Origin: Bryobacterales bacterium | GTDB taxonomy: Bacteria; Acidobacteriota; Terriglobia; Bryobacterales; UBA6623 | DNA: 64,000 bases | Assembly (NCBI GenBank): GCA_963422375.2 | Contig: OY729428.2 | Location: forward strand, 640,001-704,000 | Direction of reading: 5' to 3' | Part shown: positions 17,528 to 20,500 of the stretch, piece after piece | Numbering within the stretch: the stretch's first letter is position 1 | How the letters are laid out: each line of letters begins with the position of its first letter | Position numbers: made by a program

Positions 17528-20500
17528 CGCGCCGATTTGCCGGACCTCCTAGCCCTTCGGTAGCTTGGAGCGGGAGACGGGACTCGAACCCGCGACATCG
17601 ACCTTGGCAAGGTCGCACTCTACCAACTGAGTTACTCCCGCTGGCTAGATCTGAGTGTAGCCTAACACACGCGGTGCGTCAACACCCCGGCAACGGAATC
17701 CCGCCTGCCAACGCGTCCGATACCATCGACTGGCCCGCCCGCGGGGAATACACGCGGGGTATAATCGGGTCACGGGGACGGCTCGCAGCCGTTCCGGCGG
17801 GCCTTCCGGCGAGGCGCTTGCCATGCCGAGCATGGAGTTCAGAATCCGAGTTCGTCGAGCGGCTCTGCGCCTGCACCGCTCGATCCGCGAGGCGCGGATG
17901 ATCGCCAAGGCGCTGGTGGACACCGACCATCCGGTGCTGGCGCACCTAATTCCTACCCGGCGCTGCAACATCGCTTGCGCGTACTGCAACGAGTACGACG
18001 ACTTCTCGCGGCCGGTGCCGATCGACGTCCTCTGCCGCCGGACCGACCGCCTCGCGGACCTAGGCGTCAGCGTCGTCACGCTCAGCGGCGGCGAGCCGAT
18101 GCTCCATCCGCAGCTCGACGACCTGATCCGCCGCATCCGGGAGCGCAGGATGATCGCTGGCCTGATCACCAACGGGTACCTGCTCGGGCCCCGTCGCATC
18201 AGGCAGCTCAACGACGCAGGCCTGGAGTACCTCCAGATCAGCATCGACAATGTCGTGCCCGACGAGACGTCCATGAAGAGCTTGCGCGTGCTGGACCAAA
18301 AGCTCGCCATGCTATCCGAGCACGCCGACTTCGACGTGAACATCAACTCCGTGGTGGGCGCAGGCATCCCGAATCCCGGGGACGCCTATGCGGTGGCTCG
18401 GCGGGCGCTGGATCTCGGCTTCACCAGCACCGTCGGAGTCATCCACGACAGCGACGGCCAGCTGCGGCCGCTAGGAAGGACCGAACGGCAGGTTTACAAC
18501 CAAGTCAAGGCCCTCTCCAAGCGCGGCTACAGCCGCCTGACTTTCTTCCAGGACAATCTCGTGGAAGGAAGAACGAACAAGTGGTCCTGCCGGGCGGGCG
18601 CCCGCTACCTCTACGTGTGCGAGGACGGCCTGGTCCACTACTGCTCGCAGCAGAGAGGCACCCCGGGCATTCCCTTGGAAGAATACGGCGTCGCGGACAT
18701 TCGCGGGGCGTACAAGACACCCAAGTCCTGCGCTCCGGCCTGCACGGTGTCGTGCGTCCACAAGGCGTCCGCCGTGGACTTCTGGCGGGATCACCACCGG
18801 CCCCCCGCCCGAGTTTGAGGCACGGGCCGCCCGGTCCGTCAATCGGTCGGCAGCCAGCCGCAGTCCCTGCCCTCCGCGCATAGAAACACGCGACCCCCGG
18901 GAATCGGGTGCGCCCGCGCCCAAGCCTCGCCGTTGACGAGCAGCGCCGTCGACCAAGCCTCCGTGTCGATGGCCAGCGGGGCGATAACAGAAACCGCGGC
19001 CACTCCGGCCGCGGGCCGCCCCGAGCGGGGATCGATAATGTGGCCGTATCGCTTCCCGCCCTTCTCGAAGAACGATTCGTACGACCCCGATGCCGAAAGC
19101 GCCTCGTCCCTTAGAGTCACGGTGGCCACCGGCCTGCCGTCGCTCCGCGGGCCGCGCAGGTCCAAGCTCCATCCCCCGCCGTCCGGAGGCGCCCCTAGCG
19201 CGAACACGCTGCTGCCGCCCGAGCTGACCAGCGCGGCCTCGATGCCCCGCGCGCGAAGAGCTGCGACCGCCCGGTCCACCGCGTAACCCTTCCCGATCCC
19301 GCCCGGATCCAGCAAAAGGCTCGACCGCCGGAATCGAACGGTGCGCTCGTGCCGGTTCAACTCGAGGTGGCGGTAGCCGCTGTTCCGCCGGGCCCGCCAG
19401 AGGGTCCAAGGCCACGGCATGACCCCATCGCCCTTGTAGAATCCCCACGCGCTGACCAAGGCCCCGACCGTGATGTCGAAGGCCCCTTCGGTTTCCCGCG
19501 CATAGCGCAGGCAGCGGTCGAGCAGGTCCGCCATCTCCGGCGAGATCTTGACCGGGCCGCGGGCCGCCTCGCGGTTGATGCGGCTGAGCTCGCTGTCCTG
19601 CTTGTAATTGCTCAGGAAGGCGTCCACGCGGCGGGCCTCGTCAAAGGCCGCGGTGACCGCGCCGGCCGCCGCGCTCTTGGTGGATGCGTAGCAAGCGATG
19701 CGGAACTCGCTGCCCATGATGGCCGACGACAACTCCAAGCGCTCCAACCCGAGCGCGTAGGCTGGCGAGGCGAACTGCAGGGCCGTCGCGGCCAAGACGG
19801 CAGCCAGTCCCTTGCGGATCCGCTTGCGGATCCGATCCAGCAGCTCGTCCATGCGCCGCGCATGCCGCTCTCCCAGGTCGAGCGCGAAGCGCAGCTCCGG
19901 GACGTGGCGCATGCGCAGGCTCTGCGCCAGCGCCTTGCGAATGAAGGGGGTGGCCCGCTCCAGCGCCTCCACCGGCCGCGGGTCCGCTTCCGCAGGGGTC
20001 GCCGGATCCCACGGCGCGACGAAGACGCGGGCGGAGCGCTTGTCCGGCGACAAGACAACCCGGCTTACACGCACGGCCGCCACGTCCGGGTCGCGAACTT
20101 CGCCCGCCACGATCCGCGTCAGCTCCCGCAGAAGCGTGCTCTCGGCGCGGTCGTGCCTGAACGACGGCATTCCTCGTGCCCATCATGGCACAGGGCTTCC
20201 GGCCCGCGGGACGTAGGAACGGCGGGGAGCGCGGCGGGGAGACGCGGCGACAGGATCGAATCGGGCGGAAACCGAAGCGGATCGGAGTTGAGCGAATCCG
20301 GGCTCAAGCCAGATTCATCTGCCCCCAACACTTGGCGAGGAGCGGGCGGACTGGATGGCATGCAGGTACTCTTCGCCGGCCCGGTCAACCGGCCGCCGTA
20401 CTCCCGTGCGTGCGAATTCCGAGCAGTGCAGTGCGCAGGACAGGAAACCATCATGGCGGTCGGCTCGCCTTGCCCGCCGAAGGTGAGTTTCCGCCCTACC

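Follow-up and report, generated by a model that had tools for sequence, protein, structure and literature searches.

How can a ribosome maturation factor that acts in the cytoplasm and a flavin transferase that acts in the periplasm be made from one gene? Fusions normally unite proteins of the same compartment. Within the window analysed here, a 64,000-nucleotide stretch of a Bryobacterales genome, one gene encodes a 16S rRNA chaperone together with an enzyme of the periplasm, and this arrangement has persisted across two families. Below we describe the gene, its distribution and history, and the way in which its product might be divided between the two compartments.

One reading frame encodes RbfA and ApbE

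An initial annotation had described the only rbfA of this genome as running into apbE without a stop. Translation of minus-strand positions 18839-20170 bears this out, giving 443 aa followed by a stop codon, with no internal stops. Pfam places RBFA at residues 5-111 (E = 3e-22; PF02033, 79 bits against a cut-off of 34.7) and ApbE at residues 152-418 (E = 5e-72; PF02424, 243 bits), and the rbfA model TIGR00082 scores 69.8 bits, above its cut-off of 51.15. In tblastn searches the genome, which is 96% complete, yielded a single rbfA, as had been claimed, and three apbE paralogues including the fused one. Both Pfam families are present in 118 of the best 120 listed proteins, the query counted, and a protein atlas search returned nothing but ordinary ApbE clusters (0.84). 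The AlphaFold model (mean pLDDT 87.4, pTM 0.68) contains an RbfA domain and an ApbE domain, joined by a helix at residues 100-121, a short helix at 123-129 and a low-confidence segment at 130-139 (pLDDT below 50).

An assembly or frameshift artefact is ruled out by relatives with the same fusion and by two public sequencing runs, each of which contains positions 18000-21000 in a single contig with 0 differences; these runs may be the assembly's own source. This is a real, lineage-wide fusion that spans compartments and is assembled from two known families. Its features are collected in Table 1, together with neighbouring genes noted in passing.

Table 1. Features of the fusion gene, its surroundings and related loci (positions count along the window)
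Feature	Position	Strand	Basis or remark
rbfA-apbE fusion gene, 443 aa	18839..20170	-	translation, Pfam, TIGR00082, read comparison
Extended -10-like promoter element; 11 nt separate its end from the ATG	20182..20192	-	conserved pattern in genera g1 and g2
RbfA type II KH domain, residues 5-111, the genome's only rbfA	19838..20158	-	Pfam, TIGR00082, tblastn, fold
In-frame ATG (Met107), possible non-conserved internal start	19850..19852	-	start-type codon there in 12/56 fused genes
Basic end of RbfA C-terminal helix, residues 112-121, putative n-region	19808..19837	-	K/R counts, AlphaFold helix 100-121
Hydrophobic h-region, residues 122-131	19778..19807	-	stands where ApbE of unfused and RbfA-less relatives has its N-terminal signal peptide
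c-region with predicted signal peptidase I site Ala137-Tyr138-Ala139	19754..19777	-	small-x-small pattern; pLDDT <50 at 130-139
ApbE/Ftp flavin transferase domain, residues 140-443	18842..19753	-	Pfam, fold, Ser361/His377
Cys431/Cys437 pair on C-terminal hairpin, possible disulfide	18860..18880	-	conservation; model strands 427-432 and 437-439
Radical SAM gene, convergent with the fusion	17823-18818	+	pairing kept across g1 and g2
Second apbE paralogue, 7 kb off, own hydrophobic leader	10003-11403	+	true start probably lies further downstream than listed
IS605-type TnpB/Cas12f-like open frame	11812-12954	-	
RNase H protein	28534-29478	-	two tandem RNase H domains
RbfA-less loci L063-L073 and L080			G154, G098, G072, G036, G084, G104, G106, G102, G042, G096, G094, G114

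The fusion occurs in two families of the order

PF02033 was matched in 187 of the 201 genomes of the order, and for a chosen subset we read the DNA of 103 loci in three families: the genome's own (f1), its sister family (f3) and a third (f2). All six f3 loci are fused. Family f1 contributes 63 loci, 50 of them fused, one split (G004) and 12 carrying apbE without rbfA. Fusion is seen in none of the 34 f2 loci; 28 have apbE directly or almost directly after rbfA, and in six it lies outside the fetched flank. The earlier statement that the fusion is found in two families and is absent from a third therefore holds. These counts leave out G044 and G122, in which neither half was matched, and G021, where a contig end cuts the locus. 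One f1 genome, G114, has a fused as well as an RbfA-less locus, and its fused copy hardly differs from that of a different genus, so the fused locus is probably a stray contig.

The separate apbE of f2 carries its own signal peptide, and its start frequently adjoins or overlaps the stop of rbfA. Two genomes have the stop and the ATG abutting in frame, which shows how the two frames could merge. The signal-peptide codons of f2 apbE also contain an AT-rich extended -10-like motif in 18 of 27 unfused loci (for example L033, L040, L046, L129 and L130), often within an AAACA-N14-TGTTT palindrome; the motif is absent from 56 fused loci. Judged by eye, most f2 loci have hemE as the gene after apbE.

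Beyond the order, ApbE was hit at none of 20 rbfA loci sampled elsewhere in the class, and the next gene in 18 of them, judged by eye, is truB or encodes a DHH protein. ApbE was likewise found in none of eight RbfA frames longer than 400 aa among 150 of 270 phylum-wide matches listed, which include the unpublished genomes G345 and G223 (short frames). A separate tally for the class covers G565, G553 and G570, and nothing else stated here depends on these five genomes. Two of the eight long frames, from two other Acidobacteriota families, are RbfA-DHH-DHHA1 fusions (L157 and L158, in G290 and G346). RbfA went unmatched in 31 of 301 Acidobacteriota genomes, clustered in families f25 (0/5 matched), f32 (0/4), f50 and f47.

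The f1 genomes without rbfA form a clade of 11 in genera g6, g7 and g10, four of them in one contig, with the gene order infB-DUF503-apbE. Neither Pfam nor a fusion profile matched RbfA in any of the 11, and an f3 RbfA query returned nothing under E 0.87 from five of them. The g7 loci have an apbE start that overlaps with the stop of DUF503; directly behind this start comes the hydrophobic segment, as an N-terminal signal peptide. RsgA scores above its cut-off in none of the 11, in 17 of 25 fused genomes, in three of 10 f2 genomes and in the split genome, a co-occurrence that is patchy across the order and weak as evidence. By these profile matches, the clade apparently lacks both 30S factors, RbfA and RsgA.

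In a tree of IF2 and DUF503 rooted on 12 outgroups, the unfused f2 is sister to f1 plus f3 (SH-aLRT 99), the RbfA-less clade (98) is nested within f1 (100), and G004 falls among the fused members of g3. AU tests on 26 of the 55 tree rows under a simpler model rejected a fused-only clade that excludes the RbfA-less group (p-AU 1e-8) and did not reject a grouping of f2 with f3 (p-AU 0.13); f1 plus f3 had a support of 90 in these 26 rows. The ApbE tree was a quick tree. The rooted tree favours one fusion. On the simplest reading, apbE lay behind rbfA in the ancestor of the order, and one merge, one deletion of the RbfA half and one re-split followed. Two separate fusions are also possible, because the tree gives no clear branching order at the base of f1.

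An accident in an rbfA-apbE operon whose genes abutted probably gave rise to the fusion. Most fused genera retain the ancestral site after infB-DUF503, and in g1 and g2 the fused gene lies outside the infB operon. Our genome has infB and DUF503 on a different contig from rbfA (G000:C1:169042-170638), and its IF2 is a long branch. At the re-split locus of G004 (L074), a TGA closes rbfA, and apbE, which starts at an overlapping ATG, encodes some 70 additional residues ahead of its signal peptide. The order offers every state: separate genes, fusion, re-split and a clade without detectable RbfA.

The linker has the character of a signal peptide

Across 120 homologues, the hydrophobic core between the two domains has a median length of 10 residues, and the eight residues preceding it hold a median of four K/R. 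The best 12-residue hydropathy exceeds 1.6 in 118 of these proteins and the best 19-residue hydropathy in only 27. Downstream of the core, 113 have a small-x-small site and 73 a strict [AV]-x-A site; among fused loci the strict site occurs in 28 of 56. A rule combining basic residues, core and small-x-small site, defined after the linkers had been inspected, fits 55 of 56 linkers; elsewhere in these proteins, 9 of 952 windows fit it. A lipobox appears in just one of the 120 homologues, which rules out a lipoprotein signal for the ApbE half.

Signal peptides keep their character at low sequence identity. The h- and c-regions share only 22% identity across fused genes (RbfA 43%, ApbE 56%) and yet preserve their character, which supports a signal-peptide role. 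The core begins at residue 122 here, and the pattern is N-terminal only in the unfused and RbfA-less relatives. By position and character, the linker is the ancestral signal peptide of ApbE, since the RbfA-less clade uses the same hydrophobic segment as an ordinary N-terminal signal peptide.

The correspondence in location with the signal peptides of unfused relatives also supports export, and for export we further count a Pro/Ala insert of about 50 residues behind the core of one fused protein, as well as a conserved cysteine pair (below). Against export or cleavage we count the less hydrophobic linkers (median 12-residue hydropathy 2.27, compared with 2.62 in free ApbE signal peptides, among kin that are not independent), the 8-residue core of our genome, which is the weakest among 50 in f1, and the fused loci that lack the strict site.

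A predicted route to two compartments

These features suggest the following route. RbfA would fold in the cytoplasm, and its basic helix and the 10-residue core would probably enter SecYEG with the N-terminus in and the C-terminus out, placing ApbE in the periplasm. Signal peptidase I would then cut after Ala139 and yield soluble ApbE, an outcome that, taken with the preceding step, we regard as fairly likely. RbfA would be left on a remnant signal peptide, and a membrane cut by RseP might release it with a short tail to the 30S subunit; the chance of reaching this point falls a little short of even. Otherwise RbfA would stay anchored. The fusion may have lasted because ordinary proteases separate its halves.

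The genome encodes rseP and two lepB genes. In excerpts of PMC8144685, a remnant with a cytoplasmic N-terminal domain is a described type of RseP substrate, for which no sequence motif is needed, and RseP acts on remnant signal peptides and on FecR (PMC8144685 and PMC9360617, both in part). Targeting by SecA despite a distant transmembrane segment is described for RodZ (PMC9360617, in part). We lean, narrowly, towards a chain that is exported via Sec, cut by signal peptidase I and endowed with a functional RbfA. The fuller picture, a bacterial chromosomal polyprotein in which RbfA forms the n-region of the ApbE signal and which is matured by both signal peptidase I and RseP, is plausible and somewhat less probable.

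The initial annotation had RbfA serving as the n-region and staying tethered to the membrane. Comparison with unfused and RbfA-less relatives upholds the n-region; tethering becomes one of two outcomes. The segment could remain uncut as an anchor that replaces the ApbE lipid, or signal peptidase could cut it and leave a remnant that resists RseP; the late steps of 30S maturation would in that case take place at the membrane. The rarity of the lipobox fits this, given that most ApbEs are membrane-anchored (PMC12052999, in part), as do an uncharged stretch of about 20 residues in f1 and the half of fused loci without a strict site, and the faster evolution of RbfA in f1 could mean a changed working place. 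However, the uncharged stretch of f3 spans only 12-15 residues, and for a permanent anchor the core is on the short side, as the 19-residue hydropathy values indicate. In unfused relatives, moreover, this segment resembles a cleavable signal peptide, and a lipid anchor is described as unnecessary for ApbE function (PMC12052999, in part). Because of the short core, the substrate type and the presence of rseP, whose product is motif-independent, we rate release no less probable than permanent tethering, which is the main competing reading and which we consider unlikely.

The ApbE half and the case for export

The ApbE half matches PDB structures with TM-scores of 0.8-0.88 on the target and falls below the cut-off of the enterobacterial equivalog NF007774. 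Ser361 and His377, the equivalents of V. cholerae Ser241 and His257, are present in 55 of 55 fused proteins. Excerpts of PMC12052999 list a catalytic Ser/His/Asp set and describe the Asp as conserved; all 94 orthologues, fused and unfused alike, have Glu404 at the position of that Asp285. Within the same metal-site segment (residues 404-408), Lys replaces Thr408 in f2, f3 and the RbfA-less clade.

Cys431 and Cys437 occur in 55 of 55 fused, 12 of 12 RbfA-less and 23 of 27 unfused proteins. A DsbA-like protein is encoded in the genome, where neither DsbB nor VKOR was found, and this weakens the disulfide argument. The only FMN_bind protein of the genome is NqrC, beside another apbE paralogue, which leaves the fused ApbE with no known substrate and is counted against the preferred reading.

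If folded RbfA blocked targeting, the whole fusion would stay cytoplasmic and the signal peptide would be vestigial. Cytoplasmic ApbEs are known and truncated ones are active (PMC12052999, in part), RbfA tolerates big C-terminal partners, as the two RbfA-DHH genomes show, and the slightly lower linker hydrophobicity and the missing periplasmic substrate point the same way. Yet a useless hydrophobic segment would decay, whereas this one is kept in nearly all homologues, across 10 genera of f1 and in f3. The segment still served as an N-terminal signal once RbfA was gone, and the cysteine pair is retained. Loss of export is thus improbable.

The fusion gene appears to be translated as one frame

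Of 25 genomes from genera g1 and g2, 21 have the pattern TG-n-nATnAT upstream of the gene at the same spacing. A generic sigma-70 promoter scan found nothing and missed this conserved element, which would imply a near-leaderless transcript of the fusion gene.

Programmed frameshifting has a precedent in E. coli copA. Two separate products could arise here if an internal start gave pre-ApbE or if a programmed frameshift ended RbfA early. The initial annotation was mistaken in finding no ATG at the junction, since Met107 lies in frame 15 codons ahead of the hydrophobic core, and 44 of the 56 fused genes have an ATG, GTG or TTG somewhere at residues 96-126. No alignment column of such codons, however, is common to more than 13 of the 56, and we found no conserved internal start, Shine-Dalgarno sequence, slippery site or out-of-frame stop in these genes. 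Suitably spaced Shine-Dalgarno-like sequences occur in four, slippery heptamers or A/T runs in four and at differing places, and out-of-frame stops are scattered. Synonymous identity in the linker (0.42-0.43) is near that of the two domains (0.39-0.41), with 15-codon windows at residues 91-120 reaching 0.50-0.55. An internal start would in any case leave RbfA unfreed, and we regard separate products as very improbable.

The RbfA half remains under selection

The RbfA half matches the structures 1jos, 8byv and 2dyj. By its profile and type II KH fold it belongs to the RbfA family; 30S binding and 16S maturation are predicted functions. Excerpts of PMC8177701 and PMC9917171 describe, in S. aureus and E. 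coli, an AxG kink, the next aromatic residue and a D-x-R loop that hold the 3' end of 16S rRNA. Of these contact residues, Ala73, Phe76 and Asp27 are retained here. The AxG has become AxP in 22 of 50 f1 sequences and the Arg of the D-P-R loop is lost in 31 of 50, our genome included in both cases; that Arg is present in six of six f3 sequences. Relative to IF2, RbfA evolves 2.96 times as fast in f1 and 2.0-2.1 times in f2 and f3, with g1 and g2 represented by our genome only. The acceleration and the loss of Arg count against a functional RbfA in f1. Fusion alone, however, does not erode RbfA, because the f3 contact residues are largely intact.

Within the genus, RbfA is under purifying selection as judged from codon comparison, because its amino acid identity is 67% and that at synonymous sites 41%. 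A reading in which only ApbE matters, RbfA being expendable and destroyed along with the signal peptide, would suit the 11-genome clade without RbfA or RsgA and the faster RbfA of f1, but we give it hardly any credence, given a conservation nearly that of ApbE (71%), seven kept residues (Arg8, Asp43, Ala73, Arg88, Pro91, Asp98 and Arg106), an f3 RbfA without acceleration and the RsgA of most fused genomes.

Significance and comparison with known systems

A full-text search for rbfA and apbE together retrieved one paper, whose accessible part names them in two unrelated table rows (PMC3899948), and our literature searches, whose coverage excluded most subscription papers, did not find an rbfA-apbE fusion. 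The accessible main text of a flavinylation survey (PMC8238504) contains none of the terms 'fused', 'fusion' and 'Acidobacteri'. The component families are known, and so are the proteases that most likely separate the two halves.

If RbfA is cut free, housekeeping signal-peptide proteases would process a bacterial polyprotein, and the supply of free RbfA, hence 30S maturation, would rely on export by Sec and on proteolysis in the membrane. Each exported flavin transferase would come with one RbfA, and a slow or controlled second cut would let the membrane gate ribosome maturation. If RbfA is anchored instead, a tethered RbfA could mature the 30S subunit, which bears on the cellular site of ribosome completion.

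The protein shares with the RbfA family the type II KH fold, the C-terminal helix and the ancestral place after infB-DUF503. It differs in a C-terminus that runs on into a signal peptide and a presumably exported enzyme, whereas the other RbfA fusion found joins a cytoplasmic DHH protein. With ApbE/Ftp proteins (PF02424) it has the fold and the Ser/His pair in common, and it departs from them in the lack of a lipobox, the internal signal and the Glu at the Asp285 position. ApbE fused to its fumarate reductase substrate is a named fusion type (PMC12052999, in part).

The closest mechanistic parallels are RsiV and RsiP, which are cut by signal peptidase and then by a site-2 protease (PMC8844934, in part), and FecR. 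As far as the excerpts describe them, these proteins have, like the fusion, a cytoplasmic domain, one membrane segment and an outer domain, and two cuts free the inner part; RsiV and RsiP carry the signal peptidase site in the membrane segment, as predicted here. They are, however, regulated signalling switches, whereas the fusion unites two unrelated housekeeping proteins and has no apparent sensor. In the core-E1 junction of HCV and the C-prM junction of flaviviruses, a basic RNA-binding protein has a hydrophobic C-terminal tail that acts as signal peptide for the exported protein after it. The likeness to these viral junctions is one of analogy without homology, and the rbfA-apbE fusion, unlike them, is a chromosomal bacterial gene.
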